NCBI GenBank assembly: GCA_018992685.1
Contig: JACVGT010000002.1
Location: 1-64,000 of the forward strand
Length of the DNA stretch: 64,000 bases
Origin: Theionarchaea archaeon
GTDB lineage: Archaea; Methanobacteriota_B; Thermococci; Methanofastidiosales; SZ-28-30
Reading direction: 5' to 3'
The position numbers were made by a program, and so were the translations under genes. This document shows positions 1,298 through 41,110 of the stretch, piece by piece; within the stretch, counting starts at the first letter, position 1, and each line of letters opens with the position of its first letter. Under the pieces are notes generated by a model that was given only the letters and a program-made list of their open reading frames with translations, was not told the origin of the DNA and ran no database searches.

Positions 1298-4084
1298 TCA
1301 GATTTTTACTCTGGGATCGAGCCACCTGTAGGAGATATCAGTTACCAGGTTTGCAATAAGGATCATCAGAGCCAGTGCGAGAGACGTTCCGATAACGGAG
1401 AAGTAGTCTCTCATGAAAGCAGCATCTACGAAGTATTTACCCATCCCCGGCCATGAGAACATTTTTTCAATGATAGGTGATCCCCCAAGCATCATAGCAA
1501 TCCTCAGCCCAATGACCGTCAGAATCGGGAGTATTGCGTTCCTCAATGCATGCTTGTAGATAACAATTCTTTCTTTCAATCCCTTGGAGCGGGCAGTCAG
1601 GATGTAGTCTTCCCTCAGTACACTGAGCATGGAAGATCGAACCAATCGGGTTGTATAGCCAATGGAGGCCAGCGTTAACGTCAGGACAGGTAGCATGAGG
1701 TGCTTCAGGTAGTCCAGGTAATAGGTCAGATCATGGGGGACATTTTGTCCTGCAAATTCCCAGGAATGAGTACCTCCAAAGGGAAACCATCCAAGTACCA
1801 GTGAGAAAAGGAGTATGAGCATCAGTCCAATGACAAACTCCGGAAATGAAGCACCAAACAGGGAACCCATGACAATGTATGTGTCAGTGCGCGTGTTGCG
1901 GTGAATCGCTGATATGATTCCCAGTGGTACAGCAATAACTGTTGAAAGAACCAGGGCAAGAATCTGGTAGATCAATGTATTGGGCAGCCTCACAAGGATT
2001 TCTGAGAGAACAGGTTGACCAGTGGTGAACGAAAATCCAAGGTTTCCTCTCACTGCCTGTTGTAACCAGCGGTAATACTGGATATACCATGGTTGGTCCA
2101 ATCCCCACGCCTTCTTAAGCAGAAGATACTCCTCCATGGTGGGTCTCTCTCTGAACACCTGTTCCAGCCCCATGACTCTGTCGACTGCATCTCCCGGACA
2201 GAGGTAAACCAGAATGAAGACAATGAAGGAAACAGCCAGCAGTATAGGCACAAGAAAAACGAGTCTTCTTGCAACATACCGTAGCAATCCGGGATCGAAA
2301 AGTCTGGATTTCCCTGGCTTCGTTTCCACTGGAGCAAAGGCAGGTGTAGGCCTCAACAGCCCTCTGCGCTCCATGTTCCTTAGAATCAGTCCCAGGCACT
2401 CATCAATCTCCGCTTCAAGATATGAATCTACATTCTTAGGAAGTGCAGATCTCTTCCTCACCAATTCATCATATCTCGTGTGCGCCCGCGAAACGTTGCC
2501 CCTGTCAATATCAGAAGCAAGTCTCTGAGCGTCTCTTAGAAATATCTGGAGAAGACCAGAGGATTTCTTCCTTTTCGCCAGGTCGTCTTTCCTTTTTCCT
2601 TTGCTCCGAGACGAATAGATCAGCTCATCCATGAAAACCGGAAAAATGATGGCGAGTGTCACGATTATCAGCCACAGGGGAACAGGTACATCATGTTCAG
2701 TACGAACCTCCTTGTATTGAGCCTTTTTGTTAAGATCTATCTCAAAGATATTTGGTGTCGCCATGCCTGAGACAAACGCCGTATCATCCTCTCCGAAGGT
2801 TATTCCTCGGGGCAAGTTGTCAGGGACATAGTACCAGAGTGAGACTCTTCTAGTTTTCACTGTGATATGAAACGCTTTTCTATCCCCGACTACTACAATT
2901 TCACCATCCTTGAAGGTAATATCACCCGAATGAGCAGATGGGCTTTTGAATTCATCCAAGATCACGTCATTTTCATAATCGTACTGATATATGACTGAGT
3001 CAGGATAAATTTTGTTCATGTTGCCAGAAATGTCTGGGAATTCCTCAATGGAATAGACATCCAGAACCCACAGGTTGGCACCATCCCACGCCACCCCATA
3101 GGGTGTACTGTATGGGGTCTCATAACTTGATACCACCTCCCCCTGAGGAGAAATCTGATAGATAGTCCTCTTACTGAAATCACAAACCCAGAAGTTCTCT
3201 CCATCAAAGGTCAAACCCGTTGCTTCAAAGCAGGGTACATCAATTGAATCTACCACTTCATGTGTGGTGAGATCATATTTCAGGATAGCACCGTGATATC
3301 CTGAGGTAATCCACAGGTACCCATCCATGTACAGCAACCCATTTGCTGCATGCGTGGGGCTCTCAAATTCATTCTCCACTGTGAACCTGTGAGGGATATT
3401 TCTCTCCCCCTGCCGTTCTTCATAAATCCCTACACCATACCAGCCCCCCACAAAGACAATGCAGGCTATGAAGATGATAATCTTATTACTTCGCCTCATC
3501 CTGACGGGATTGGGAATTGAACGAAAAGACAATCCTTTCGCAACCCCGGCCAGCCTGTCTTTGATCTTTTTCTCGGCCTGGGGTTCTCTTCCAGTCATTT
3601 CATGCCTCGAGGGACCAGTGTGTTCCAGGGCCGGTGGTTCAGGATGTGGCTGGATATGAACGTCAACACTTCCTTCTTCTTCCTTCTGGATTTCCTTTCC
3701 GATTTTGAAAAGATATTCTTCAATTTCTGATCTGAGGATGGGATCCCCATCTGTGGGAAGCCTCAGTTCCTGTTTCAGAAGCTCTGCGTACAGTCTTTTG
3801 GCCTGTCCTACATCATAAGTAGCAAGGGCACTATAGAGTTCCTTGGCTTCAGAAAGCAGGCGCTGTGTATTCCTTCCACGGTCTGTTTCTTTGTGTCTGG
3901 CAGTCTTTTTCTGAGAGACTTCACTACTGATTGGAGATTCTCCGGGCAGATCTTGAACAGCGTCCTTGAAATCAGGAGACTCAGCCCCCAGATGAATTCC
4001 CAGGTAGGCTGCCCGTTCCCTGATCTTCCGTTCATTCTGTTCCAGCTTTTTCAAAGCATCTTCAAGATCATTGGCTTTTTTCAT
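1298..4084 (-). CDS. Fusion protein: helical domain - TM - beta-propeller - TM - helical domain - DppB/OppB-type ABC permease
   Basis: C-terminal ~320 aa are DppB-like (GLDQPWYIQY, GNLGFSF, EDYILTARSKGL, HALRNA, FSWPGMG). The middle has GLTFDG/GVAWDG propeller blades. Start moved to ATG 4084 behind GGAGA (track start 4132). Confidence 0.8.
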   Translation of the reverse strand: MKKANDLEDALKKLEQNERKIRERAAYLGIHLGAESPDFKDAVQDLPGESPISSEVSQKKTARHKETDRGRNTQRLLSEAKELYSALATYDVGQAKRLYAELLKQELRLPTDGDPILRSEIEEYLFKIGKEIQKEEEGSVDVHIQPHPEPPALEHTGPSRHEMTGREPQAEKKIKDRLAGVAKGLSFRSIPNPVRMRRSNKIIIFIACIVFVGGWYGVGIYEERQGERNIPHRFTVENEFESPTHAANGLLYMDGYLWITSGYHGAILKYDLTTHEVVDSIDVPCFEATGLTFDGENFWVCDFSKRTIYQISPQGEVVSSYETPYSTPYGVAWDGANLWVLDVYSIEEFPDISGNMNKIYPDSVIYQYDYENDVILDEFKSPSAHSGDITFKDGEIVVVGDRKAFHITVKTRRVSLWYYVPDNLPRGITFGEDDTAFVSGMATPNIFEIDLNKKAQYKEVRTEHDVPVPLWLIIVTLAIIFPVFMDELIYSSRSKGKRKDDLAKRKKSSGLLQIFLRDAQRLASDIDRGNVSRAHTRYDELVRKRSALPKNVDSYLEAEIDECLGLILRNMERRGLLRPTPAFAPVETKPGKSRLFDPGLLRYVARRLVFLVPILLAVSFIVFILVYLCPGDAVDRVMGLEQVFRERPTMEEYLLLKKAWGLDQPWYIQYYRWLQQAVRGNLGFSFTTGQPVLSEILVRLPNTLIYQILALVLSTVIAVPLGIISAIHRNTRTDTYIVMGSLFGASFPEFVIGLMLILLFSLVLGWFPFGGTHSWEFAGQNVPHDLTYYLDYLKHLMLPVLTLTLASIGYTTRLVRSSMLSVLREDYILTARSKGLKERIVIYKHALRNAILPILTVIGLRIAMMLGGSPIIEKMFSWPGMGKYFVDAAFMRDYFSVIGTSLALALMILIANLVTDISYRWLDPRVKI

Positions 4085-4413
4085 GATCCCTATCTCCTTT
4101 TTCAAGTCTCTCCAACTCGCTGCAACAGCCACTCTCCGAAATATTACTACTGTAAGTAGTAGCCGGTACCATTGTGCGCGGCTGTCTTATATATGTTTCG
4201 GTGAAAAGAAAACAATAGCTTCGTGGGCAATCCAGACTTCATGGTGAAAACTGGTGAAGAAATAGACGGGAAAACAAGATGGAGTGACATTCATGGCCGC
4301 TGGGAAACAGGTCTGCATCAATTGTGTTGTCTGGTAATAAAAGAATAAAAGAAAAAAAGAAAAGGGGAATATGAATCCGTCTCAAGGAAAGTGCATTTCA
4401 CAGGGATTCAGGT

Positions 4414-5388
4414 TCAGCCCAGTTCACCGTTGAATAGATTGGTGCGCTTCACATGGACAACTGCAAGACCCACCATCACGACAATCCACCCTGAAAAGAG
4501 CAAATGCTGCTGAGGGCTGAAATCACCCATGAAATACTCCAAGAACATGATGACAATCCAAAGGTGAGCGAAGTCCATGACGTGAGAGTGCTTTTCAGGA
4601 TGGGCAAAGTAATAGAGTGAGACATTGGCGCAGATCAAAGCTGCTGTGATATACAAATTGAGGAGACCACAAAACACGATGCTAAATCCAAAAAAAATCA
4701 CCAAGAACAGAACTTTCAGTGTATTTGATGTATTCTGACCCAGTTTCTGGACAGTATGGGACGCACTGCTGATCCTGTCTACATGAAAATCACGTACTTG
4801 ATTATCAATTTGTCCTATTAGACTTATCAGCAAAAGAATGACCACACTTCCCCATACAAATGATTCAGCTGTGACCTTCACTCCAATGAAGTAGAGATAG
4901 CTTGCAGCAATGATCAGACCTTTCCACAAGAAGACAAAGATCCAGTCCCAGTATTTACGGTCTCTCAGCCTCACTGGTGGCGCAGAATAGAGCAGAGCAA
5001 GCACGTTGAGCAGTAGGATGGGTATGAAGACAGCCCGGGTTATAGAAGCTGCCAAGACGAGGCTGGCTCCAGGGCTGATATAGAGGACTGCGGTTCCAAT
5101 CTTTCGGCGTTCTTCTGTGCAGAATACGTTTCTCGTCCCTTTGTTGGGGTCTCTGGAATCATGAGGGGCATCAAAAAAATCGTTGACGACGAACATGAAG
5201 ACATTACCGCAGAATACACTGACCGCGAGAATGATTACCTGCAATGAGAACCCCTGCAGATAATTCCAGAAGAATCCCACCAAGATTAGACCAGATGAAA
5301 CCACAGCATACTCAAATCGCAGATCTTCTAGGAGCAGCAACACAGACTGGCTTCGGCCGAGAACCTGGTAGCTGGAAGTGGACATCAC
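4414..5388 (-). CDS. UbiA-family prenyltransferase
   Basis: NDFFDAPHD and NQVRDFHVD Asp-rich motifs, YSAPPVRLR, multiple TM helices. Confidence 0.85.
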   Translation of the reverse strand: MMSTSSYQVLGRSQSVLLLLEDLRFEYAVVSSGLILVGFFWNYLQGFSLQVIILAVSVFCGNVFMFVVNDFFDAPHDSRDPNKGTRNVFCTEERRKIGTAVLYISPGASLVLAASITRAVFIPILLLNVLALLYSAPPVRLRDRKYWDWIFVFLWKGLIIAASYLYFIGVKVTAESFVWGSVVILLLISLIGQIDNQVRDFHVDRISSASHTVQKLGQNTSNTLKVLFLVIFFGFSIVFCGLLNLYITAALICANVSLYYFAHPEKHSHVMDFAHLWIVIMFLEYFMGDFSPQQHLLFSGWIVVMVGLAVVHVKRTNLFNGELG

Positions 5389-5664
5389 ACATCACCATCA
5401 GAGGGGGGATGGGTGATCCTGCTTGACAACGCATTCTTCTCACTGGAACTACTGGTACACACTGGGGGCATAGGCTGATGTTCAGACGTCGCTCCCCCGG
5501 ATGTCGAATCTCCCATAGAGTACATCTGCTTTGGATTCATTATCACAATCTGTAGAACAGATATTTAAACATTGCGTCATTAGAATTCAGAGGAGGTTGG
5601 AAAGGTGTCAGGAAAGAGCCTTTGACTCAACTTTATAAGTTCTCGTGACAGAGAGACTCAGGAG

Positions 5665-7053
5665 TTGACCCGCATGTTGGATATTCTAGAACGTTGCATT
5701 GATGTCTGTTCTCATCCTGAGCACCTATTGCAGATACGAGGCCAGAGGAGACAGGTGACAGCGTGCACTGTCAAGAATAGTGTCGTCCAGCAGTTCTCCA
5801 CCCTTTCTGTTCAAGGAGTGGGAGTGAGAGCCCGTGTTGATAATGGATGTTGGGGGTTCAGTTCAGTCAATACATGTGAAGCAAGCCAGGTGGAGCAGGC
5901 AGCCAGGCAGGCTGTGGCTTTGGGGAAAGCGGCTTCACGAGTTTCTCAGGATCGTGTTGAAATTCAGACACAGAAAGCCGTCACTGATACGGTTTCTTCA
6001 CCAGTCAAGGTTTCCCCTTCAGGATTAGCTGAAGAAATTGTGGACATTCCCATGAGGGCGTGCACGAGTGCGCTGGGTGCAGGACCGGAGATTAAAGATT
6101 GTAAAGCAACCTATATTAGTATGGAAGATCAAAAGTATTTTGTCAGTTCAGAAGGGTCACAGATCACTGAACATATTACAAGAATCATGCTGTTCGTCAA
6201 TGTGGTGGCAAGGAGGAATGATGTCGTCTGCCCGTGTTCTGACAATGTGGGGTTTACAGGGGGGTGGGAAGTTTTCGATGAAACCTCACCTGAAGAGCTG
6301 GGGCAGACGGTTGCAGAAAAGGCAGTGAATCTACTGGCCGCCAAGACCCCGCCCTCGGGTACGGTTCGTGTGATTATTGGCCCCAAGTTATGCGCTACCC
6401 TCCTTCACGAGGCCATTGGTCATCCCTTGGAGGCTGATCTTGCCATGGCGGGAGGAGGATTTGGCACTCAACTCAATAGACCAGTGTGTTCTGAATTGGT
6501 GACTATTTACGATGATGGACATGTACCAGGAGGGCTGGGCTATTTTTTCTATGACGATGAGGGGACACCCTGCACCCGTACCACCTTGATTGACTGCGGA
6601 GTTTTGAAATCATTCATGCATGACCGCGAGAGTGCCTCAGCTGCAGGGGTTCTACCCACCGGGAATGCTCACGCCTGGGACTACAGCGTGGAGCCCTTGA
6701 TCAGGCAAACCAACATCGGTATTGAACCAGGGGAATATACGGTCGAGGAGATGATAGAAGACGTCTCTGACGGATTGTTTCTGGAAGGAACCTTTGGAGG
6801 GCAAGCAGACTCCAATGCTGATTTCACTTTTGGCTTTCAGAGCGCCCGGGCAATTGAAAAAGGGGAGCTCACAGAGGAGTTCAGGGGTGCAAATGTGGCT
6901 GGAAATGCTATTGACGTGTTCAAGACCATTGACGCCGTGAGCAACACGTCAGTGTTGAGGCCCGGTGCATGCGGGAAGCATCAGTTCGCAGTTCAGGGAC
7001 GGGTGGTTCCAGCCATCAGGTGCCACATCATGGTGGGAGGACATGGAGGCTAG
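5665..7053 (+). CDS. tldD: TldD metalloprotease subunit
   Basis: HEAIGHPLEAD metal motif, YDDEG, RQTN, C-terminal CGK. Confidence 0.9.
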   Translation: MTRMLDILERCIDVCSHPEHLLQIRGQRRQVTACTVKNSVVQQFSTLSVQGVGVRARVDNGCWGFSSVNTCEASQVEQAARQAVALGKAASRVSQDRVEIQTQKAVTDTVSSPVKVSPSGLAEEIVDIPMRACTSALGAGPEIKDCKATYISMEDQKYFVSSEGSQITEHITRIMLFVNVVARRNDVVCPCSDNVGFTGGWEVFDETSPEELGQTVAEKAVNLLAAKTPPSGTVRVIIGPKLCATLLHEAIGHPLEADLAMAGGGFGTQLNRPVCSELVTIYDDGHVPGGLGYFFYDDEGTPCTRTTLIDCGVLKSFMHDRESASAAGVLPTGNAHAWDYSVEPLIRQTNIGIEPGEYTVEEMIEDVSDGLFLEGTFGGQADSNADFTFGFQSARAIEKGELTEEFRGANVAGNAIDVFKTIDAVSNTSVLRPGACGKHQFAVQGRVVPAIRCHIMVGGHGG

Positions 7054-26732: not shown

Positions 26733-27155
26733 TTATTTCTGTTCAGGGCAGCATTCTCCTCTAGGTATGCCGTTCCCGTGTGGGCATTCCCGCGGATGAT
26801 CCAGGAATATGCACAGCTTTGTGGCAACTTCGCTTGAAATTGAATGCTCGCAAGAACAGGCAATTTCCTCAATATCTCTCCTGTCGATGTGAACTACTCT
26901 GTTCAGAAGCACTTCCATGAGTCTGTGGGCTCTTACTATTTGTTTGGCCTCTGTCTCCCCCTTTTCGGTCATAATAATCCCCTTTTGCCTTCTGTACGTG
27001 ACCAGCCCCTTTTTCTCCAGTTTTCTCAACATTTCTACGGCACTGGGGGGCTGCACATCCAGCAGCTGGGCTATATCCCTGATTCGACAGATACTGTCAC
27101 CGCTTTCCCTCAGGTACCACAGAGCTTCCAGATATTCTTCCCCGCTTTCACTCAT
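26733..27155 (-). CDS. DtxR/MntR-family metal-dependent repressor
   Basis: EEYLEAL, HTH, RAHRLMEVLL, CEH, PRECPHGNGIP; ATGA overlap with feoB. Confidence 0.92.
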   Translation of the reverse strand: MSESGEEYLEALWYLRESGDSICRIRDIAQLLDVQPPSAVEMLRKLEKKGLVTYRRQKGIIMTEKGETEAKQIVRAHRLMEVLLNRVVHIDRRDIEEIACSCEHSISSEVATKLCIFLDHPRECPHGNGIPRGECCPEQK

Positions 27156-29053
27156 ATCAAAATCCCTCCTGCTCTCACCAAGAGAGCCAGAATCACCGCC
27201 AGCCCAGTTGTCAAGAATACAATGGACACCGTTCTTTGGATCCCAAATTCCTTTAACAGAACGCCAATGGTAGCAACACATGGAACATAAAACATGACGA
27301 ACACCGTGAATGTCAAGACCTGTACTCGTGTCAGAACGTTGAGCACCTGAGATGTACCCAGAGCCTGGATCAACATGACCAGAGAGAGTTCTTTCTTCAA
27401 TACACCAAATACGAGAGTCACTCCCACTGCAGCGGGGAGGCCCAGCACCATTGTGATTGGGCTGAGAGCCTGGTTAATGGAGAAATCAACTCCTACGTAG
27501 GTCATGAGACTGAGCACAGAACTTCCTCCTATGAGAAGAGGCCATGCAATGTATATAAACTCTCTCACCCGAAGCCAGGTTTTCAACAACACGTTCTTTA
27601 CAGAAGGAACGTGGTACGTTGGAATTTCAAGGATGAGTCCCGGGGTAACCTCCGGCATGAACCGAGACATGACAAGACCCAGTGCTACGACCACTACTAT
27701 ATTGAAGGCGTAAAGACCTAAAGCAGCATTGGGAGATATGAAAAAGGCTACCAACCCTAAAATTACGGTAGTCCGGGCAGCACAGGGTATAAGAGTTGAT
27801 AAGGTGGCTGTAATGAAACGATCCCGTTCAGATTCCAGAATTCGAGTGGCCATTATTGCAGGAACAGTACACCCATACCCCAGTATGACGGGTATTACAG
27901 CCTTCCCGTGGAGACCAATCCTGTGCAGGAACGTATCCATGAGAAAAGCTATCCGGGGCAAGTACCCGATATCTTCTAGAATGGCAAGTCCAATCAGGAA
28001 AGGGACCAGGTAGGGCAGGACAATACCCACCCCTCCAGAGAATCCTTCCAGCACGCCTTCAGCCATTTCCAGTGGCAGCCCGCTCAGATACTCCGACAGG
28101 TGAGGCATGAGGTGTTCAAACGCGTGAAGAACGTAAGATTCCACGATTTGGCCAATTCCGAAAACCACATTAAAAAAGACGTAGAGGATAACAGCCAGGG
28201 CAACATATCCTCCGTACCTGTGCATTAGTACATCATCGAGCCGGTCTCTCAGAGAGATCTCGGGCTCTGTGACTACTCCTACTTTTTCGAAAATATTCAT
28301 AGCCTGGGCGTGCCTTTCTGAGGAGATTACTACATCTGCAGCTCTTCCGTGGGATTTTTCCAGTCGGCTTTGAAAGGTTCGCACCTTCTCCAGGATTTGT
28401 GAGTCTCCAATCGATTCTATGAAAAACTGGTCATTCTCCAGGAGTTTCAGTGCCAGAAGTCTGGATGGCACGTTTAAGGTTTCACTCTCTCCTATGAGTT
28501 CTCTTTCCAGTTCTGTTATAACCTTCTCGATATCTTTGCTGAACTCAATCTTGTGAGACAGGGTTCCTGCTCGAGCAGTGGCTATGGCAGCCTGGAATAC
28601 TTCTCTGATTCCCTTTCCCTTGACTGCAACAGCAGTTACCACTGGGATTCCCAAAATTCTCTTCAGCTGCTCTGTGTCTATATGTATTCCCTTTCGTTCT
28701 GCTTCATCCATCATGTTCAAGACAAGTACCAGAGGAATATCCAACTCTGCGATCTGAATGGTTAGTTCCAGGCTTCGTGACAGCCGGGAAGCGTCAACTA
28801 CATTGACGACCACGTCTGCTTCCTTTCGCAACAAGTACGTGCGGGCTTCAAGTTCTGCAAGATCAAAAGAAGTCAAGGAATACGTTCCCGGAAGATCCAC
28901 CACATCCAGGATCTGACCTGAAAACTGAACACGGGATTCGTTGTATTTCACCGTTTTTCCAGGGAAATTGGAGGTCACTGTCTTGTATCCAGCGATTTGG
29001 TTGAAAAGGGTACTCTTGCCGGAATTGGGTTGTCCTGCCATGGCCACGATCAT
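27152..29053 (-). CDS. feoB: Ferrous iron transporter FeoB
   Basis: GQPNSGKST, NFPGKTV, DLPGTYSL, NMMD, GYGCTVPA, YVPCVAT. Confidence 0.95.
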   Translation of the reverse strand: MIVAMAGQPNSGKSTLFNQIAGYKTVTSNFPGKTVKYNESRVQFSGQILDVVDLPGTYSLTSFDLAELEARTYLLRKEADVVVNVVDASRLSRSLELTIQIAELDIPLVLVLNMMDEAERKGIHIDTEQLKRILGIPVVTAVAVKGKGIREVFQAAIATARAGTLSHKIEFSKDIEKVITELERELIGESETLNVPSRLLALKLLENDQFFIESIGDSQILEKVRTFQSRLEKSHGRAADVVISSERHAQAMNIFEKVGVVTEPEISLRDRLDDVLMHRYGGYVALAVILYVFFNVVFGIGQIVESYVLHAFEHLMPHLSEYLSGLPLEMAEGVLEGFSGGVGIVLPYLVPFLIGLAILEDIGYLPRIAFLMDTFLHRIGLHGKAVIPVILGYGCTVPAIMATRILESERDRFITATLSTLIPCAARTTVILGLVAFFISPNAALGLYAFNIVVVVALGLVMSRFMPEVTPGLILEIPTYHVPSVKNVLLKTWLRVREFIYIAWPLLIGGSSVLSLMTYVGVDFSINQALSPITMVLGLPAAVGVTLVFGVLKKELSLVMLIQALGTSQVLNVLTRVQVLTFTVFVMFYVPCVATIGVLLKEFGIQRTVSIVFLTTGLAVILALLVRAGGILI

Positions 29054-33932: not shown

Positions 33933-34120
33933 GAATAATCCTCATCCCTCTCTTCTAACGTTCATTGATGCCTTATAAGACTTTATGGTGCTTCTTCATC
34001 TTTCATTTTTTCGTGCCACATCAGGAATGGTGCTGCACGATTCGTGCCAAACCTATAAGAATGTGGGCATGCATGGTAATGGTAGACACTATCGGGAATT
34101 GCACAGAAACGGAGGTTACG

Positions 34121-36979
34121 ATGATCACCCATCCAAAGATCCTCTACTTGTTCTCTGGACCTCTGGTAGCCTTGGACGGCAGCCCTCTTGACGTGCTGGA
34201 TTTGAAAACGGAACGTGATATCATTGTGAGAGAGGTTTCTGCCTGTGAGATGACATGTTCACTCCGAATCGGGTATGCAACCATAGAAGAACTTGCCAAA
34301 GGCATTGAAGATGGATTCAACATTCTGCATATAAGTACACATGGCAGAGCGGAATGTCTCCTATTTGAAGATGGGAAGGGCGGAAGTCAGCCTGTCACAG
34401 GCGAGTACCTCAAGAGAGTGATAAGCACAAAAGGGTTACTTGAGTTGATCATCATCAGTGCCTGCCATTCAGAAGAGATTGGTGCAATGCTGGCAGACGC
34501 AGGTGTTCCACATGTTGTGGCTATCAGGCGCGATTCCTCTGTAGTAGATCAGTCAGCCATTCTCTTCACAACCCACTTCCTTCGCAATCTCTTTCGGGGA
34601 AGTTCTGTACAGAAAGCCTTTGAAATGGCTTCCCTGCTCGTAGAAGGGAACCCTGAATTGATGAAGATGAAACAACGTCTTGAGGTCATTGCCTACAGAA
34701 AAAAAGGGACATTCATTCCAGAAGAAAAGAAATTCATTCTACTTCCCACAGATGCTGCCCACCACGATCCTCTCCTCTCTCAAGAAGTCCCCTCAGGTAC
34801 CGTGACAATTGAAGAGCCCCCGGTTTCACCCTCGAATCTTCCCACAAAGCCGCAGTTCTTTGCAGGTCGACTTGAGGAGATGCATACCATCATCAACGAA
34901 CTCATTCAGGGTAGGTTTGTCACCCTGACAGGAGTGGGAGGCATTGGAAAAACAACGGTAGCTCTTGAGGTGGCACGATGGTTTTCTTCCAGGAGGGTTT
35001 TTCCTCATGGAATCTACTACATAGACCTCCGGCAGACTGATACTGCAGATGGAGCCCTTGATCTCTTGTGTTCAGCTCTCAAAGTACAGGTTTCTCGGCT
35101 CCAGAACGTTATCACCTACCTGGCGGACCGTCGCTGCTTGCTGCTTTTTGATAATGCAGAGGATGTTCTCTGGCACAATGAGAAAGACCTGCAGCATCTC
35201 TTCAACACAGTCCTGAAGACTACTCCCCACTCCACGATGTTGATAACAAGTCAGAGACCGGTTGGAGGCAACCTGCATGAACCCGAACATGTGTGCAGAA
35301 TATTTCCACTGGAACAGACATATGCTTGGATGCTTTTCTGTGCCACCACAAAGAGGAGGATTTTGCCCGATGAATGTGAATCGCCCCTCTTTTCTGCCCT
35401 CCTTGCCCGATTGGGGGGACACCCCTTATCAATTGTATTAACAGCACGTCAACTTGCTCCCGGGGTGACTCTGGAGGACATATACGAAAGGATTGAGACA
35501 TACAAGGCCGCAGCAATCAAAATAAAGCATCGTACAGATAGAATCCTGGACCACGGAGAAAGCCTCATGACAGCTCTGGCTTCTGCCTACCACATCTTGT
35601 CAGATCGAGCACAGATACTCTTTCAAGTGCTTTCCCTTCTTCCAGCGGGTGCCAGACGTGATATACTGGAAGAAATCTGGGGCAACCCAGTCTGGGAGCA
35701 CGTACAAGAACTCAATGATGCTTCCCTGGCAGAAGTGAGAAGCAGACGGGTGACTCTGCTGCCTCCAGTGCAACTATTTGCATTCACTGTTCTTGCTGAG
35801 GAAGTCAAAGAGTACTATGGTCCCAGAATCGTGGAAGCTATGGGGACATATGCCAAGACGCTGTACAAGGGCCACACCACAGAGGATTCGAGAGAATACC
35901 GGATTCTCTTTACTGTAGAAGAGCCAACCTTCCGAGCTATTCTAGACCTTCCCGATGAATCATTTCAAGCAGGGAAGAATGGTTCATTCCTTGGGTTCTT
36001 CGGAGCTGAACTCATTTACTTATATATTTTCCATAATCGGTGGAAAGAAGCAGAAACCATTGGTTCTAGGATACTGTCTCATCTTGGACGATGTGAGGAT
36101 TTTCAGGGTGAAGCACATGTTCTTGTAGCCCTGGGGGTCCTTGCTTTTCGAACAGGAAACCTTGAAGAAGCTAGGACAAGGTATGAAAAAGCTCTCAAAA
36201 CATACCAGAATATCCACGCGAGAATGGGAGTCGCAAATGCGTTTTGGGCACTGGGCGATCTTTTCTTTAGAACAGGAGATTTCGAAGAGGCTCAAAGGCG
36301 ATTTGAAGAAGCTCTGGATATATACCAGGAGATTGATGTGAATCTTGGTAAAGCAAATGCCTTCTTACGTTTAGGGATGCTTACTTTTCTAACAGGCAAT
36401 TCTGAAGAAGCTCAAGAACGGCTTGGAAAGGCCCTGATGATCTATCGATATATTCACGTCGAAATCGGTGAAGCAAACACTCTCCGCATACTGGGAGATG
36501 TCGCCATGTGGACAGGTGATGTGGACGCAGCCCACATCCAGTACCAGAAAGCCCTGAGAATCTATGTGCACAACAGCGTGAAGGATGGTGAAGCGCGTGC
36601 CCTGGTTCACCTAGCCCGGTGGGCCGCTCTTACAGGCAGAAGTGAGCACATGCAGACGTATCTTGATGATGCATTCACAATATATAGGGAGATAGAAGAC
36701 CTTGATGGACTGGCCCACGCGCACTTGGTAAAAGCGCTTCTCTTTCTCAAGACTCACAATACGATCAAAGCAAGGCGCCAACTCGATTTTTGTTCATCTA
36801 TCCAGGAAAAAACGTGCCAACATTCTGAAACAGCCCAATGGCTCATTACGTATGCAGACCACTTCATGTACTGTAAAGAAGAAGCAGTATTGTGTTTGGA
36901 ATATGCAGAGGAATTTGCCATGATGGCACGAAATCTCTACCTTCTTGGCAGAATAAGAGAAAAACAGGCATTGCTGTGA
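34121..36979 (+). CDS. CHAT (caspase-like) protease - STAND/NB-ARC NTPase - TPR protein
   Basis: ILHISTHG and ISACHS catalytic dyad; GVGGIGKT Walker A; LLFDNAED Walker B; GGHPLSI; several TPRs; GGAGG before ATG 34121. Confidence 0.88.
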   Translation: MITHPKILYLFSGPLVALDGSPLDVLDLKTERDIIVREVSACEMTCSLRIGYATIEELAKGIEDGFNILHISTHGRAECLLFEDGKGGSQPVTGEYLKRVISTKGLLELIIISACHSEEIGAMLADAGVPHVVAIRRDSSVVDQSAILFTTHFLRNLFRGSSVQKAFEMASLLVEGNPELMKMKQRLEVIAYRKKGTFIPEEKKFILLPTDAAHHDPLLSQEVPSGTVTIEEPPVSPSNLPTKPQFFAGRLEEMHTIINELIQGRFVTLTGVGGIGKTTVALEVARWFSSRRVFPHGIYYIDLRQTDTADGALDLLCSALKVQVSRLQNVITYLADRRCLLLFDNAEDVLWHNEKDLQHLFNTVLKTTPHSTMLITSQRPVGGNLHEPEHVCRIFPLEQTYAWMLFCATTKRRILPDECESPLFSALLARLGGHPLSIVLTARQLAPGVTLEDIYERIETYKAAAIKIKHRTDRILDHGESLMTALASAYHILSDRAQILFQVLSLLPAGARRDILEEIWGNPVWEHVQELNDASLAEVRSRRVTLLPPVQLFAFTVLAEEVKEYYGPRIVEAMGTYAKTLYKGHTTEDSREYRILFTVEEPTFRAILDLPDESFQAGKNGSFLGFFGAELIYLYIFHNRWKEAETIGSRILSHLGRCEDFQGEAHVLVALGVLAFRTGNLEEARTRYEKALKTYQNIHARMGVANAFWALGDLFFRTGDFEEAQRRFEEALDIYQEIDVNLGKANAFLRLGMLTFLTGNSEEAQERLGKALMIYRYIHVEIGEANTLRILGDVAMWTGDVDAAHIQYQKALRIYVHNSVKDGEARALVHLARWAALTGRSEHMQTYLDDAFTIYREIEDLDGLAHAHLVKALLFLKTHNTIKARRQLDFCSSIQEKTCQHSETAQWLITYADHFMYCKEEAVLCLEYAEEFAMMARNLYLLGRIREKQALL

Positions 36980-36982
36980 TAT

Positions 36983-37894
36983 TCAACTCCCTGGATCGTC
37001 CCTGTCTGAGGGAGGCTGGGGGAACGGCTCTGAAAGATTCTCTATGAACTTTCTAACATCCTCAACCAGCTCTGGTGCACTATCAATCTTGTCATTGATG
37101 CTGAAGAGTCCCACTGCTTCTTCGAAACAGTGGAGAATCAACGTAACCTGGGTGGGATCATCATCTTTCGCTTGTTTCCAGAGAATATTGGCCTCTGTCC
37201 AGAGCCTGTTTGCCCTTCTTCTCAGTCTGTTCGCACGATTCCGGAATTGTTTCTTGAATTCTACTGGAATGCTTCTTTCTTCTCTTGTATCCCTTGTACC
37301 CTCCTGCAGACACTTGGTTTCATGGGCCAGGAGGATATCATACACATGACCAACTATGCCATCTGGATGGGTTTCACCTTCAGCCTTCCAGTTGTTCTTC
37401 GTTACTGCTGTTATCTCTAATCCACACGCTTCCTTAACCAGATCGGCAGAATTCTGTATCATGGGCCTGGAAGCAGACGGGTTATAGCTTGAAAGGTTGG
37501 CCAGTCTTTCAGCAGGTGCTGTGTATCCCTGATACCCGTTGCACAGATACTCCCAGTGTGTTCCCAGCAAATTGAAGTGAGTGGGGATTATATCAGGCTG
37601 CCCCCATCCCTCACGCGCGTAGGAGTCGGTGAGGAATCTTGAAAGAACTTCTGTCATCTCAATGACAATTTCCAGTAGTTCTTTCTCTTTCCCTACTAGT
37701 GTAGAAGTAAGAACCACCATTTCGTCTCTCTTTTCGTCAATGGCACCCATATTGAAAAGCACGGCGTCACCTGTCTTTAATGCTGCAGCAGCCGCTCCTT
37801 TGAGTGCTTCGTCAAAACTCCTCTTGATCTGCTGTTCTATACTGATGATCCTATTTATTTCCAGTTCAATGCTGTTTTCTTTTTGCCTTTCCAT
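36983..37894 (-). CDS. Hypothetical, largely alpha-helical protein
   Basis: 303-aa ORF, convergent on the CHAT-STAND gene with a 3-nt gap; no family recognised. Confidence 0.6.
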   Translation of the reverse strand: MERQKENSIELEINRIISIEQQIKRSFDEALKGAAAAALKTGDAVLFNMGAIDEKRDEMVVLTSTLVGKEKELLEIVIEMTEVLSRFLTDSYAREGWGQPDIIPTHFNLLGTHWEYLCNGYQGYTAPAERLANLSSYNPSASRPMIQNSADLVKEACGLEITAVTKNNWKAEGETHPDGIVGHVYDILLAHETKCLQEGTRDTREERSIPVEFKKQFRNRANRLRRRANRLWTEANILWKQAKDDDPTQVTLILHCFEEAVGLFSINDKIDSAPELVEDVRKFIENLSEPFPQPPSDRDDPGS

Positions 37895-38079
37895 GAGTTC
37901 GCCTCATATCGAATTGTTCTGATACATTCTCATAATAACAAGTGAGTATTCCTTTAAGAATCTTGGGTTGGAGGAGGTATTCTCATCCTCCCAAGGATTT
38001 CAGAGAACCAACCTGTACAAAAGTCTCAAGGAAAAGCATGAGACATTGGTGAAAAAAGGAGAAAAAAGGACTCCCTGGT

Positions 38080-39126
38080 CTAATCAGTCACCAAGATGTG
38101 TTCCAGTTCCTGCCAGCACCGCGGATCTTCTCCAAGGAAGTCGCCCGTTGCAGAAGCAGCTCCTCTACAGCCTCCGCAGGCGAATTTGTACTTACAGCCA
38201 CCACATTTCCCTTCAAGTGCTGATCTGGAATGGCGAAAATTATCTAGAAGTTCATTCTCAAACCAGATTCTTTCCACGTTCTCTCTTGTGGCATCAGCCA
38301 CAGAGATGGGGAAATAAGGACAGAGCTGCACAATCCCCTGAGGGTTGATGTAGAGCAGCGTAAAAGCAATCGAGCAACCAGTAACTGCTATCCCCTGCAT
38401 GAGATCTGAATCAATGTCTATCTCTTTCTGTCTGGTCTCGTTCACGAACATCTCAGGGAAGGGGTCACTGAACCCAACCCTCATATTCAATTCTTCACCC
38501 GTTTCCCATATTCTCTCGCACAGCCTCCGGTACTGATCCGCATCCACCATCCTATTTGTAGCTCGTCCCACTGGAACGAGATACCGGAAATTGAATATCC
38601 TGACGCCAATGCTATCTACAAATCGCATGAGAGCTTCAGGTTCATCTTCTCCCTGATGAAAATATGTCATCCGGACAGCCACTGTGGCATCACTTTCCAC
38701 GAGAAGGTTTAATGCCTGGACAGTCTTTTCAAAAGATCCTCTGCCCCGTACAGAATCGTGTATTCCTGGAGTTGCCCCTTCCATGCTGACATTGAACCCC
38801 CGGACTGTTTCTAAGAGCCAGTCAATTCTCTCAGGAGTTATCAAGGTTGCATTGGTGAGAAGCTCAACGTGATTTCCAGGCAGGTTGTCTCTAATGTAGG
38901 AGAGAATCTCCTGGAGGTCAGCTCTCATGAGAGGTTCCCCTCCTGCCATCGCAAGGGCTGCATGTGGTGAAAGAGAGTGTATCTGATTCAGCAGTGATAC
39001 AATTTGCTGATATGTCAAGTCTGCCGCAGTCTTGTCCAGGACACTTGCCCGACAGTGTTTGCATGCCAGGTTACACTGGCTTGTAATGTCCATCTGGACA
39101 ATTCTTGGTGGGTATTGCCATTTCAT
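38080..39126 (-). CDS. Radical SAM enzyme with SPASM domain (PqqE/NirJ/Ahb-like)
   Basis: CNLACKHC, GGEPL, TNAT, HDSVRG; SPASM ligands GC...CP...CGGCKYKFACGGCR...DPRCW; GAGGTGA RBS. Confidence 0.93.
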   Translation of the reverse strand: MKWQYPPRIVQMDITSQCNLACKHCRASVLDKTAADLTYQQIVSLLNQIHSLSPHAALAMAGGEPLMRADLQEILSYIRDNLPGNHVELLTNATLITPERIDWLLETVRGFNVSMEGATPGIHDSVRGRGSFEKTVQALNLLVESDATVAVRMTYFHQGEDEPEALMRFVDSIGVRIFNFRYLVPVGRATNRMVDADQYRRLCERIWETGEELNMRVGFSDPFPEMFVNETRQKEIDIDSDLMQGIAVTGCSIAFTLLYINPQGIVQLCPYFPISVADATRENVERIWFENELLDNFRHSRSALEGKCGGCKYKFACGGCRGAASATGDFLGEDPRCWQELEHILVTD

Positions 39127-39150
39127 TTCATCACCTCTGGTTGTGTGGAT

Positions 39151-39176
39151 AAAAAAACGGGGGCATGAAGCCCCCC
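39151..39176 (-). terminator. GC hairpin + T7 tract between the peptide gene and the radical SAM gene
   Basis: Minus strand GGGGGC-TTCAT-GCCCCC-G-TTTTTTT. Confidence 0.75.
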
Positions 39177-39183
39177 ACTCTAG

Positions 39184-39432
39184 TTACTTCGGCAAAATGC
39201 AGATATCGCATCCGCCACATGGCCCCTGCAAGTCGGGATAGAATGGCCGTAGAGGATGAATCGTCTTCAGTTTCTGCAACCTGTCTTCAATATCCATCTT
39301 CTTTGGCTCTCCTATGACAAGGTCGCATCCTCCACATGGACCTTGAGCTGCGTACACCGGGATCTTGTTTTGTTTCGCATGTTCCAAGGCATCTATCAAC
39401 TCTGATACAGAGTAGTGTTTGTTTGTATCCAC
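39184..39432 (-). CDS. Putative RiPP precursor, 82 aa, with two QGPCGGCD cores
   Basis: GGAAGTGA RBS before GTG 39432; PVYAAQGPCGGCD and PFYPDLQGPCGGCD; directly upstream of the rSAM-SPASM gene. Confidence 0.75.
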   Translation of the reverse strand: MDTNKHYSVSELIDALEHAKQNKIPVYAAQGPCGGCDLVIGEPKKMDIEDRLQKLKTIHPLRPFYPDLQGPCGGCDICILPK

Positions 39433-39839
39433 GTTAATCACTTCCTTTCTTGCTGTGAGGTTGCTCTCTTTCCACAATGCAACCTCATACAGACACGTAT
39501 CTGGGTTCCTCTTCTTTCATGAATGTTATTATGGAGGATTAGACAACTCTTGGACAAAAAGGTTAGATTCATCAGGCCAGTTTTGACATTTTTCAGCAAA
39601 AATCATACATCTGAGGTATTGAAAATTCAAATAACCTGTTTCTAGAGACATAATGAACTAGATAATTCAATTGCCTGGATTGAGCATTGAGAACGAATGT
39701 CTAGGAATGTTAATTGTGAGGCCCTCGCTCGACTGTCATTTGAAAACATCAAGGCTTTCTGGGGACAACATCGAGGGATCATGGTATCATTAGGCGAGTT
39801 CCGGTGCCAGAAGCAGGTCTTCAATTGCAGGAAACACAG

Positions 39840-40928
39840 CTAATCCACATCTTCTGCAGCAATGCTGTCCCGATAGTTCTTCTTGATCCAGAGGTTCCGC
39901 ACAGGAATCAAGAGCCGAAATGCACCATTCAGGACTGGATTCGAAAATCTAATTGAAGCTTTTTTTTCCAGAAGAGTGCAGCCAATACGACGTTTCACAA
40001 TATAGGTTGTTGGACCGAAGTACATTCGTTTGCATCCTCGTCTGATCATTTCTCGAACTACCTCATAGCAAATGTTGAAGTAGGCATTATATTCTCTTCC
40101 GTATGTCTTTTCCACTCCAGAAATTGCCATAGATGCCAGATCGCCATCAAAGAAATAAATCCAGTATCCAAGCAATTTGTCCTCAAGGTAACAGCGCAGG
40201 ATGAACGCATAGTCACCAACATACTTTTCAAGTCCCTTGTAGAAATTCGAAGTGAAAGAAAGAGGATAGTTGTGTCCGTGTTCCAGAAGGTTGTCTCTGT
40301 GGAAACTAAATAGGAATTCTGCATCTGAGAAATCCTGGGAATGTTCCAGCCGAATTCCTCGTCTTTCTCCCTGGTTCAGAGTGTGTCGTATGTTCTTCTT
40401 TGATTTCCTCGGTAGTGATTTCAGGTAGTCCTTGAACGTCTTCCACCGGACATCAAGATATGTTGAGGGCGAGACCTCCAAGAGAGAGGTTTTTTTCTTG
40501 AGAAAGGACACATACGGCTCGTTGTCCACGTTGGCAATGACGATGGCTTTGGTGTGTTCCTTCCGTGCGGCATCCATCATGCTACCGTACAAAAGCGAGA
40601 GGATTGGTTCAGCAGGTTCCCCCTCTTTCACATGAATGCCGATTTCATCTGAGAAGGGGCACAAACAGGCGAGGCTTGACACATACACCCCTAGGATCGC
40701 CCTGTATGACAGAAAACAGACTGCAGATCCCACAAGCTGATCGTCCCGAGTGACGGTGAGGAAGTATGGGGAAATGCCTTCCCGGAGAGAATGCTCCAGG
40801 AGCTCCATCCACCTGTAGGTGTGGAAGGTTCTATTATTGACCACATTGTCCCATTCCTCTCGGGGAATCTCACTAATGTGATGGTGAACATGGGCTGTAA
40901 GGTTCATGGCTCTTTCACTATCCTTCAT
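39840..40928 (-). CDS. FemAB-like / GNAT-fold acyltransferase
   Basis: TFKDYLKSLPRKSKKNIR, YFNICYE, FGPTTYIVKRRIGC. Confidence 0.8.
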   Translation of the reverse strand: MKDSERAMNLTAHVHHHISEIPREEWDNVVNNRTFHTYRWMELLEHSLREGISPYFLTVTRDDQLVGSAVCFLSYRAILGVYVSSLACLCPFSDEIGIHVKEGEPAEPILSLLYGSMMDAARKEHTKAIVIANVDNEPYVSFLKKKTSLLEVSPSTYLDVRWKTFKDYLKSLPRKSKKNIRHTLNQGERRGIRLEHSQDFSDAEFLFSFHRDNLLEHGHNYPLSFTSNFYKGLEKYVGDYAFILRCYLEDKLLGYWIYFFDGDLASMAISGVEKTYGREYNAYFNICYEVVREMIRRGCKRMYFGPTTYIVKRRIGCTLLEKKASIRFSNPVLNGAFRLLIPVRNLWIKKNYRDSIAAEDVD

Positions 40929-41110
40929 GGAAGACTCTTCTCATTTCTCCTCTTAAAAGGTTTGGTCTCAGCCATTCAGGGCAACCTACCCGCATTCTCT
41001 GTGGATAGAACGCTCAGGTCTGCAGTGAACCTAGTTCTGACGAAAAGGTGAGAGGAGTGGAATGAAAAAGGTTATTATATGCCAAGGCCAGCTTTTGTCG
41101 GAGGAATCAC

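Follow-up and report, generated by a model that had tools for sequence, protein, structure and literature searches.

The stretch analyzed here (hereafter the window) comprises 64,000 nucleotides from a Theionarchaea archaeon (GenBank assembly GCA_018992685.1, contig JACVGT010000002.1, positions 1 to 64,000), and all coordinates below refer to it. On its minus strand, a gene for an 82-residue peptide carrying two copies of the octamer QGPCGGCD is followed by a gene for a radical S-adenosylmethionine (SAM)/SPASM enzyme of 348 residues. An earlier note, made from the letters of the window alone, had proposed that these two genes encode the precursor and the modifying enzyme of an archaeal crosslinked peptide, that is, a peptide made on the ribosome and altered after translation (RiPP). 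Our comparative analyses revealed that the two genes, the motif and the clade of the enzyme have all been conserved and are strictly linked to one another, and a precursor with its own maturase is the interpretation that we favor.

The peptide gene and its family

The features of the cassette are as follows.

39432..39184, minus strand: putative precursor peptide gene (82 aa; GTG start at 39432, coding part 39432..39187, TAA stop at 39186-39184)
39437..39445, minus strand: Shine-Dalgarno-like sequence GGAAGTGAT, 4 nt before the GTG of the peptide gene
39345-39322, minus strand: motif copy 1, QGPCGGCD, residues 30-37 (G31, P32, C33, G34, G35, C36 and D37 invariant in alignment A1)
39228-39205, minus strand: motif copy 2, QGPCGGCD, residues 69-76, followed by I-C-I-L-P-K
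39175-39149, minus strand: GC-rich stem-loop (6 G-C pairs) with a run of seven T, within the 57-nt spacer
38080..39126, minus strand: radical SAM/SPASM enzyme gene (348 aa; ATG at 39126, 57 nt past the peptide stop, preceded by AGAGGTGAT)

A longer, TTG-initiated frame of the peptide open reading frame (ORF) reaches 39477. In the same-genus locus L002, the equivalent GTG has a stop two codons upstream of it, and homologous peptides begin at the same point; thus, the 82-aa form was taken as real. We take GGAAGTGAT to be a putative ribosome-binding site, on the basis of archaeal anti-Shine-Dalgarno sequences. The peptide consists of two modules (residues 8-40 and 47-79), each of which leads from a helix through P-x-Y to QGPCGGCD, and the last module contains a fifth Cys (CGGCDIC), which the earlier note did not mention. 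The two-module architecture, the position of the enzyme gene 57 nt downstream and the synonymous divergence of the two motif copies had all been described in the earlier note, and all were borne out: the two 24-nt stretches encoding the motif differ at 4 bases, every one of them synonymous. Selection on the peptide, which the note had deduced from this divergence, is likewise indicated at the codon level by comparison with the L002 copy, from which the gene differs in 82 codons by 22 synonymous changes against 6 non-synonymous ones, and conservation of the motif extends over 45 distinct homologues.

An AlphaFold2 model of the peptide, built with the family alignment, comprises a helix at residues 9-21, a hairpin of strands 26-30 and 36-40, a second helix at residues 48-56 and a second hairpin of strands 65-67 and 76-78, and it places both motifs at the hairpin turns. 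[quoted passage not shown] A fold search of this model against the PDB gave no match at E <= 0.001, no NCBIfam or Pfam family matched the peptide at E <= 0.01, and the ESM Atlas provided no usable match.

Judged from the sequence searches, the peptide family is real but rare. A word-indexed search of 5.8 billion proteins returned 24 candidates, of which 22 were relatives, and a full hidden Markov model (HMM) search of 1.84 billion representatives returned 24 matches, comprising 15 small motif-bearing peptides, a degenerate relative in which the motif is missing (P0134) and 8 long, unrelated proteins. Seven proteins of 1337-3265 aa from the latter search contain no CxxCD and were discarded as chance helix matches; P0131 (662 aa), which has a CGGYD repeat instead of the family motif, was also discarded. 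Including the peptides translated from loci, the family amounts to 45 distinct sequences. The number of C-x-x-C-D copies per peptide is two in 19 sequences and three in 17, with a single copy in 6 and none, four and eleven in one sequence each. An Asp follows the primary CxxC motif in 110/110 cases, and the family consensus is A-[EKSQ]-G-P-C-G-G-C-D-[LVI]-hydrophobic, with variation at the middle residues of the motif (CGACD, CFGCD, CGRCD, CGLCD and CGTCD). Peptides of the archaeal type have an extra Cys two residues past the last Asp. The largest member is the putative precursor of a Bacillota metagenome-assembled genome (MAG; locus L004), a 283-aa ORF at 5989-6840 (plus strand of its contig) with eleven motifs, in which the module of helix, P-x-Y and motif is present three times and a run of near-identical 20-residue units suggests a recent tandem expansion.

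The spacer between the peptide and enzyme genes contains in the window the stem-loop listed above, a feature that the earlier note did not mention. Its stem and T-run are conserved in L002 with a different loop, and no hairpin common to the spacers of the bacterial loci (57-130 nt) was seen. From its sequence, this hairpin may act as a partial terminator or attenuator that sets the ratio of peptide to enzyme.

The enzyme and its coupling to the peptide

Motif, domain and fold all place the enzyme in the radical SAM/SPASM superfamily. It has the radical SAM motif CxxxCxxC at C18/C22/C25 and matches the Pfam families Radical_SAM (82.7 bits, cut-off 29.5) and SPASM (26.3 bits, cut-off 21.5) together with Fer4_12, and its AlphaFold2 model has a pLDDT of 93.6. 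In 38 aligned enzymes (alignment A2), the invariant Cys residues are C18, C22, C25, C251, C269, C308, C311, C317, C320 and C337; seven of these are C-terminal, with the last pair spaced CxxC, the usual spacing of the last SPASM pair being Cx3C. In CteB, structural work has described an open cluster site for a substrate Cys, and by analogy the seven-Cys pattern found here could also leave an open iron for such a Cys. The closest folds in the PDB are those of SkfB, SuiB, CteB, anSMEcpe, ChlB, PqqE and TigE, with E values of 1e-13 to 1e-15 for the first four, and the closest PDB sequences, as found with phmmer, are SkfB (42 bits) and CteB (5wgg; 36.8 bits). The closest solved relatives of the enzyme are thus peptide-modifying SPASM or twitch enzymes, thioether formers among them.

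These matching maturases are 383-440 residues long, and their aligned part begins near residue 100. In the enzyme of the window, the radical SAM core begins at about residue 10 of 348, too early to accommodate an N-terminal RiPP recognition element (RRE, PqqD-like), and none was detected, Radical_SAM, SPASM and Fer4_12 being the only Pfam domains. Against NCBIfam, every match of the enzyme was under the cut-off of the respective model, with the following scores.

TIGR04053: 170.9 bits (cut-off 395)
AhbD (TIGR04545): 169.5 bits (cut-off 500)
NirJ2: 150 bits (cut-off 500)
NirJ: 123.6 bits (cut-off 515)
ACGX (TIGR04340): 104.7 bits (cut-off 400)
Haloarchaeal pseudo-SAM (TIGR04347): 99.3 bits (cut-off 525)
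Mycofactocin MftC (TIGR03962): 97.1 bits (cut-off 265)
AhbC (TIGR04546): 82.1 bits (cut-off 650)
PqqE (TIGR02109): 71.2 bits (cut-off 381)
PapB (NF047865 rSAM_PapB): 58.7 bits (cut-off 340)

In sequence, tetrapyrrole-type SPASM enzymes are closer to the enzyme than the known thioether synthases are. When the CrpC family model TIGR04463 was run against the genome, the window enzyme was not among the 36 matches at E <= 0.001. In a large protein collection, the enzyme belongs to a clade of 83 clusters at >=50% identity (at least 315 bits), the next match below this clade dropping to 211 bits and 34% identity; proteins labelled TIGR04053 are 28-30% identical to the enzyme at about 130 bits.

The coupling of the two genes was approached from both sides. 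On the peptide side, the scan covered one genome per species from 185,579 species and gave 94 pattern matches and 9 loci confirmed by tblastn. Seven of the nine (L002 to L008) are true relatives, found in a Theionarchaea MAG, two Desulfoluna species and MAGs of Desulfolunaceae, Bacillota, Polyangia and Thermodesulfobacteriota, and in 7/7 a radical SAM enzyme of the clade lies directly downstream on the same strand, at a distance of 57-103 nt in the loci where the gap was measured. The other two loci (L009 and L010) show a lone motif in an unrelated frame, with no leader and no radical SAM-like ORF seen, and were regarded as spurious. On the enzyme side, the best 80 of 571 metagenome relatives were inspected. 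Three of these loci carry an enzyme with at least 55% identity, and all three have an upstream ORF of the CGGCD type, with three motif copies in L080 and one GRCGGCD each in L019 and L020; no such peptide ORF was found in the 77 loci with enzymes at 27-34% identity, which were not assigned to enzyme families. Two pattern matches, one within the enzyme itself (L029) and the other in a 17-aa fragment on the opposite strand (L065), were dismissed. Thus, in 10/10 related loci that could be read directly, the gene of the clade enzyme has the peptide gene immediately upstream and on its own strand. Six further pairs of peptide and enzyme share an identical longest-contig size (55472, 52207, 34009, 3379, 6211 and 3573), an indirect sign of co-location.

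The earlier note had named a grouping with the heme-biosynthesis enzymes AhbC and AhbD, with orthologues lacking the peptide, as the result that would count against it. This objection falls away because the enzyme belongs to a separate clade and the peptide is upstream in all of the readable clade loci, and the AhbD and AhbC scores are far under their cut-offs (169.5 against 500 and 82.1 against 650 bits).

A more distant enzyme, 34% identical to that of the window, is encoded at 2974-3996 in locus L021, where an upstream 46-aa ORF (2765-2905, plus strand) has a Cys-rich tail with GP-x-CxxC-x-D at its end. From its sequence, this ORF looks like a sister precursor family.

The genome that contains the window is itself rich in radical SAM/SPASM genes, with 43 matches to the AhbD model, none of them over the cut-off and many in tandem arrays. 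One other gene scores above the window enzyme with this model, and several genes reach 130-215 bits with TIGR04463 (cut-off 525). Regions with such genes are found on contigs C3 (57.5-61.3 kb), C10 (14.2-20.1 kb), C7 (96-100 kb), C13 (54.5-57.0 kb), C33 (0.8-3.3 kb) and C1 (68-73 kb and 309-315 kb); by their gene content, they may be further peptide- or protein-modification clusters.

Proposed function and alternative explanations

From these comparisons, the peptide and the enzyme are probably a substrate pair, namely a precursor and its dedicated maturase, and most likely one of the ranthipeptide/sactipeptide kind that constitutes an undescribed family. We favor this explanation because of the strict coupling of the two genes, the leader-like helix, the invariant short motif and the combination, in L021, of a sister enzyme with a different Cys-rich ORF. 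The pair would thus form a cassette of two genes, complete in itself, whose product is made on the ribosome and then modified by the enzyme. The N-terminal helix of the precursor, of which the archaeal form has a second copy ahead of motif 2, would serve as a leader-like recognition element, and the A-x-G-P-C-G-G-C-D-hydrophobic units would be the modification sites. The triple module of L004 supports, at the sequence level, the earlier note's view of helix, P-x-Y and motif as one leader-core unit. The maturase would engage the peptide without an RRE domain; its 5'-deoxyadenosyl radical would take a hydrogen from a side-chain or backbone carbon within the motif, and a Cys sulfur would be joined to that carbon as a thioether, yielding one small ring per motif. 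As no protease or exporter travels with the pair, the product may be kept in the cell or freed by generic proteases.

With regard to the chemistry, a thioether product, given that the peptide is modified, appears possible by analogy with known systems, at somewhat short of even chances, and a Cys-to-Asp thioether is our best guess. It is favored because Cys and Asp are invariant side chains and because the first Cys and the Asp are spaced CX3D as in the substrates of PapB. The CGGCD motif offers both Cys-X3-Asp (from the first Cys) and an adjacent Cys-Asp (from the second), and a spacing of Cys and acceptor of the ranthipeptide type is present in 110/110 motifs. The Cys-Asp/Glu thioethers of the QhpD type are a further precedent.

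Several known systems resemble the pair in part. Freyrasin, the ranthipeptide of Paenibacillus polymyxa, is made from a precursor (PapA) with several short Cys...Asp motifs after a leader, by a SPASM enzyme (PapB) that forms one thioether from Cys-S to Asp-C-beta per motif, a reaction that is putative here. PapB installs Cys-to-Asp beta-carbon thioethers in six CX3D motifs, the spacing also seen between the first Cys and the Asp of CGGCD, and accepts spacings of n=0 to 6 (PMC9413430). In contrast to freyrasin, the enzyme here matches the PapB model with only 58.7 bits (cut-off 340) and has no RRE, while the peptide has a second invariant Cys beside the Asp, its first Cys is preceded by a Gly-Pro that is likewise invariant, and in some members of the family the leader-like helix is repeated.

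An archaeal parallel is CrpA/CrpC, whose enzyme family (TIGR04463) is named 'rSAM_vs_C_rich'. As described in a 2026 report, CrpC of Methanococcus voltae is a SPASM enzyme that puts ranthionines on the repeated CAVD and PCAGD motifs of CrpA, a substrate with a leader-like N-terminus encoded in a small cluster without an exporter (PMC13692751). These motifs are close to the PCGGCD of our peptide, on which a comparable crosslink may be placed. However, CrpC differs in having a predicted RRE and a family model of 438 positions, against 348 aa without an RRE here, and CrpA is a protein of ten 17-residue repeats, in contrast to an 82-aa peptide. The absence of the window enzyme from the TIGR04463 matches of its own genome sets it apart from the CrpC family as well.

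The SCIFF system of Clostridia (CteA/CteB, thermocellin) is a pair of peptide and SPASM maturase with no dedicated protease or exporter, and we know of no biological role assigned to it. It resembles the present pair in its compactness, and CteB is among the closest solved structures by both sequence and fold; however, the similarity is just 37 bits, CteB carries an N-terminal RRE, and the SCIFF peptide has one Cys-rich core in which no fixed motif is repeated. The ACGX-repeat system (TIGR04340) combines a short SPASM enzyme lacking an RRE with a peptide of repeated short Cys-Gly motifs, a description that would also suit our pair. It differs in that the enzyme here scores 104.7 bits against a cut-off of 400, the peptide has no NCBIfam match and the motif is CxxCD with an invariant Asp. 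Finally, AhbD/NirJ and the orphan family TIGR04053 give the best HMM scores and are built in the same short form, with no domain for peptide binding at the N-terminus, but these scores are far under the cut-offs (170.9 against 395, 169.5 against 500 and 150 against 500 bits), and to our knowledge these families have no peptide partner.

A complex of the peptide with the enzyme, the latter supplied with its clusters and SAM, was predicted in 3 runs alongside 3 controls. The median score was 0.37 (runs 0.32, 0.59 and 0.37), and the best control scored 0.02, which lends the pairing weak support. The mark for this score is passed by 58/80 solved complexes and 2/110 mismatched pairs, and the range up to 0.60 holds just 7/80 solved complexes together with both of the passing mismatches.

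A number of observations weigh against the assignment as precursor and maturase. The complex prediction is a weak pass, with a pLDDT of 46-53 for the partner and 0% of contacts common to the runs. The enzyme does not have the RRE carried by PapB, CteB and CrpC, and the families that score best with it are of the tetrapyrrole type or orphan SPASM families (TIGR04053, AhbD and NirJ2), with PapB reaching only 58.7 bits. Compared with 83 enzyme clusters, only 10 loci beyond the window show the pairing by direct reading. The pair is accompanied by no conserved gene for a protease, an exporter or immunity, so the product may not be a secreted natural product. Moreover, the two CxxC knuckles at hairpin turns also resemble a metal-binding mini-protein, and because the SPASM cluster motif of the enzyme itself holds CGGC twice, the peptide motif could be a cluster ligand and not a substrate.

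Among the alternatives, the one that survives best is that the peptide serves as a scaffold for a small redox cofactor or metal-binding molecule, as in PqqA/PqqE or MftA/MftC, with one copy per repeat and an intracellular product. The peptide would still be modified in this case, though not into a crosslinked RiPP antibiotic. The lack of accompanying exporter, immunity and dedicated protease genes would suit this explanation, as would the short build of the enzyme, which lacks an RRE and is of the AhbD/MftC/PqqE type (MftC 97.1 and PqqE 71.2 bits), and up to 11 motif copies would be appropriate for stoichiometric production. In three Desulfolunaceae loci, two flavin adenine dinucleotide (FAD) oxidoreductases of the GMC family lie directly upstream, and MftG, the enzyme that reoxidizes mycofactocin, is itself a GMC oxidoreductase (PMC11778925). 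An S9 prolyl oligopeptidase follows the enzyme in L080, and the repeats are flanked by Pro. However, the GMC genes occur in one family only and are not independent cases, being absent from the window, L004, L007, L008 and L080, and the S9 peptidase is likewise confined to a single lineage. In addition, all of the NCBIfam models of cofactor maturases are far under their cut-offs, and no conserved cofactor-dependent dehydrogenase was found nearby. We therefore regard the scaffold explanation as unlikely, and its broader form is to be held with the same reserve: a short, AhbD-like radical SAM enzyme lacking an RRE would turn the peptide, at 1 to 11 copies per precursor, into a thiol/thioether redox cofactor or a metal chelator that acts inside the cell and is not an antibiotic, and the cassette would have been passed as a two-gene unit between anaerobic sediment archaea and bacteria. 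If true, it would represent a new class of ribosomally encoded cofactor beside pyrroloquinoline quinone (PQQ) and mycofactocin.

Alternatively, the peptide may remain unmodified and be a small CxxC protein that binds a metal or Fe-S cluster or acts in thiol redox reactions, supplying the enzyme with electrons or clusters or acting as its chaperone, with the substrate of the enzyme elsewhere. In the model, every CxxC is located at the turn of a beta-hairpin, which is the knuckle geometry of zinc ribbons and rubredoxins, and the two-module archaeal form supplies four such Cys residues; the motif is also similar to the cluster-binding stretch KCGGCK/ACGGCR of the enzyme, and the weak complex score suits a binding partner as well as a substrate. 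Nevertheless, peptides with 1, 3 and 11 copies are ill-suited to a fixed Cys4 site, and the invariant Asp (110/110) and the invariant Gly-Pro before the first Cys would have no explanation. The fold search gave no rubredoxin or zinc-ribbon entry among the matches listed (ranks to 50) in addition to having none at E <= 0.001, no metal-binding family was matched in Pfam or NCBIfam, and in L021 a related enzyme accompanies a different Cys-rich peptide, as is the case for maturases and their precursors. The earlier note had itself foreseen that the peptide might prove to be such a protein; this outcome fits poorly with the range of 1-11 copies, the constant Asp and the coupling to one enzyme clade, and although it stays as a rival, we consider it decidedly improbable.

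That the enzyme is a tetrapyrrole-pathway radical SAM protein of the AhbD, AhbC or NirJ type beside an incidental small ORF, as its second- to fourth-best NCBIfam matches (AhbD, NirJ2 and NirJ) and the automatic label 'AdoMet-dependent heme synthase' of the clade member P0055 might suggest, is extremely unlikely in view of the scores of 169.5 against 500, 150 against 500 and 123.6 against 515 bits, the 43 AhbD-model matches of its own genome (none over the cut-off and one above the window enzyme), the gap from 315 to 211 bits that sets off the clade, the constant presence of the peptide beside the clade enzyme in the loci read and the lack of a heme-pathway gene among the neighbours scanned, a genome-wide search for the Ahb pathway not having been made.

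Returning to the precursor and maturase, neither the peptide family nor the enzyme clade has a curated model, while the kind to which they appear to belong, a Cys-rich precursor with a SPASM enzyme, is well known. Our literature search found no paper containing the motif or the family; the supplementary lists of archaeal Cys-rich proteins beside radical SAM enzymes (PMC13692751) lay outside its coverage and might mention the family. What appears to be new is the precursor family, the separate maturase clade lacking an RRE, the modular repeat of 1-11 units and the spread across domains. With one peptide and one 348-aa enzyme, the two genes would be a minimal test system, built around a very small and rigid motif (G-P-C-G-G-C-D). 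Because the enzyme lacks an RRE and is nearer to the tetrapyrrole type than to thioether synthases, it could reveal a new mode of leader engagement or a new reaction on the Cys-Cys-Asp triad, and the 1 to 11 repeats together with the repeated helix-core module may provide a useful scaffold for several small rings in one peptide. These prospects are tempered by the fact that cassettes of a Cys-rich peptide and a SPASM enzyme turn up repeatedly in the literature.

Distribution and gene neighbourhood

The enzyme was found in 2/133 genomes of the phylum of the window, namely its own genome and one congener, and in 2/401 sampled genomes of the phylum of Desulfoluna, both of which were already known as carriers of the peptide; in both searches, only part of the first-look candidates was scored, so that genomes without a match count as not found with this query. 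The pair is therefore a rare and patchy unit that crosses domains and occurs, in the phyla sampled, in roughly one of every 100 genomes or in fewer. The earlier note had regarded the system as archaeal, an assignment that did not hold, since most of the carriers that could be named are bacterial. The archaeal enzyme is 54-64% identical to its bacterial counterparts (Desulfobacterota, Bacillota and Myxococcota), and this identity, combined with the rarity of the pair, points to a horizontal spread of the cassette in anoxic sediments, as far as sequence comparison can indicate. The G + C content around the cassette is unremarkable (0.42-0.51) and thus bears no compositional mark of a recent transfer. 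Among the viral contigs, none of the 44 pattern matches was a relative, giving no sign of a phage-borne cassette. The region 36900-41000 of the window was matched by DNA contigs of sediment metagenomes only and by no RNA run.

The neighbouring genes of the cassette in the window are as follows.

39840-40928, minus strand: FemAB-like/GNAT (Acetyltransf_6) gene, upstream of the peptide gene and about 400 nt apart from it
36983-37894, minus strand: 303-aa ORF, 185 nt downstream of the enzyme gene, with no Pfam, NCBIfam or ESM Atlas match and kept in L002 only
33965-36979, plus strand: large STAND protein with CHAT (caspase-like), NB-ARC and TPR parts, convergent with the cassette and adjoining it in L002 too

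In the Pfam and NCBIfam scans of the neighbours at the window and the related loci, no RRE protein, protease, exporter or immunity gene was conserved with the pair, in agreement with the earlier note, which had seen no RRE domain, protease or exporter at the locus, and no PqqD-like protein was present among the neighbours scanned at the window. FemAB-like enzymes can attach amino acids to peptides; a gene of this kind adjoins the cassette in no other locus read, the L002 sequence ending before the corresponding position. The TPR part of the STAND protein is similar to HaaT, a TPR protein of clusters for cyclophane RiPPs (126 bits against a cut-off of 1125), and no link of this protein to the cassette was seen outside the genus in the loci read. 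As the FemAB-like gene, the 303-aa ORF and the CHAT/NB-ARC/TPR gene recur at most in L002 and in no bacterial locus, none of them qualifies as a conserved third gene. Other neighbours in the window encode an HGSNAT-like membrane acyltransferase and a nitroreductase, and the genes further out have unrelated housekeeping or transport functions.

The surroundings differ among the bacterial loci. In the Desulfolunaceae loci L003, L005 and L006, the two GMC-family genes directly upstream of the peptide gene are paralogous (about 2.2-5.7 kb per locus), and a gene with a P22 antirepressor domain is located downstream. The S9 prolyl oligopeptidase of L080 (DPPIV_N + Peptidase_S9; 4237-6588, plus strand) begins about 170 nt past the enzyme gene and, by its domains, may be a protease that processes the Pro-flanked repeats. 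CheW lies upstream and YchF downstream of the cassette in L004, and a serpin and a hybrid kinase are the neighbours in L007. Elsewhere in the window, at 26733-29053 on the minus strand, a gene for a FeoB ferrous-iron transporter overlaps the ORF that follows it, which encodes an iron-dependent repressor of the DtxR type.

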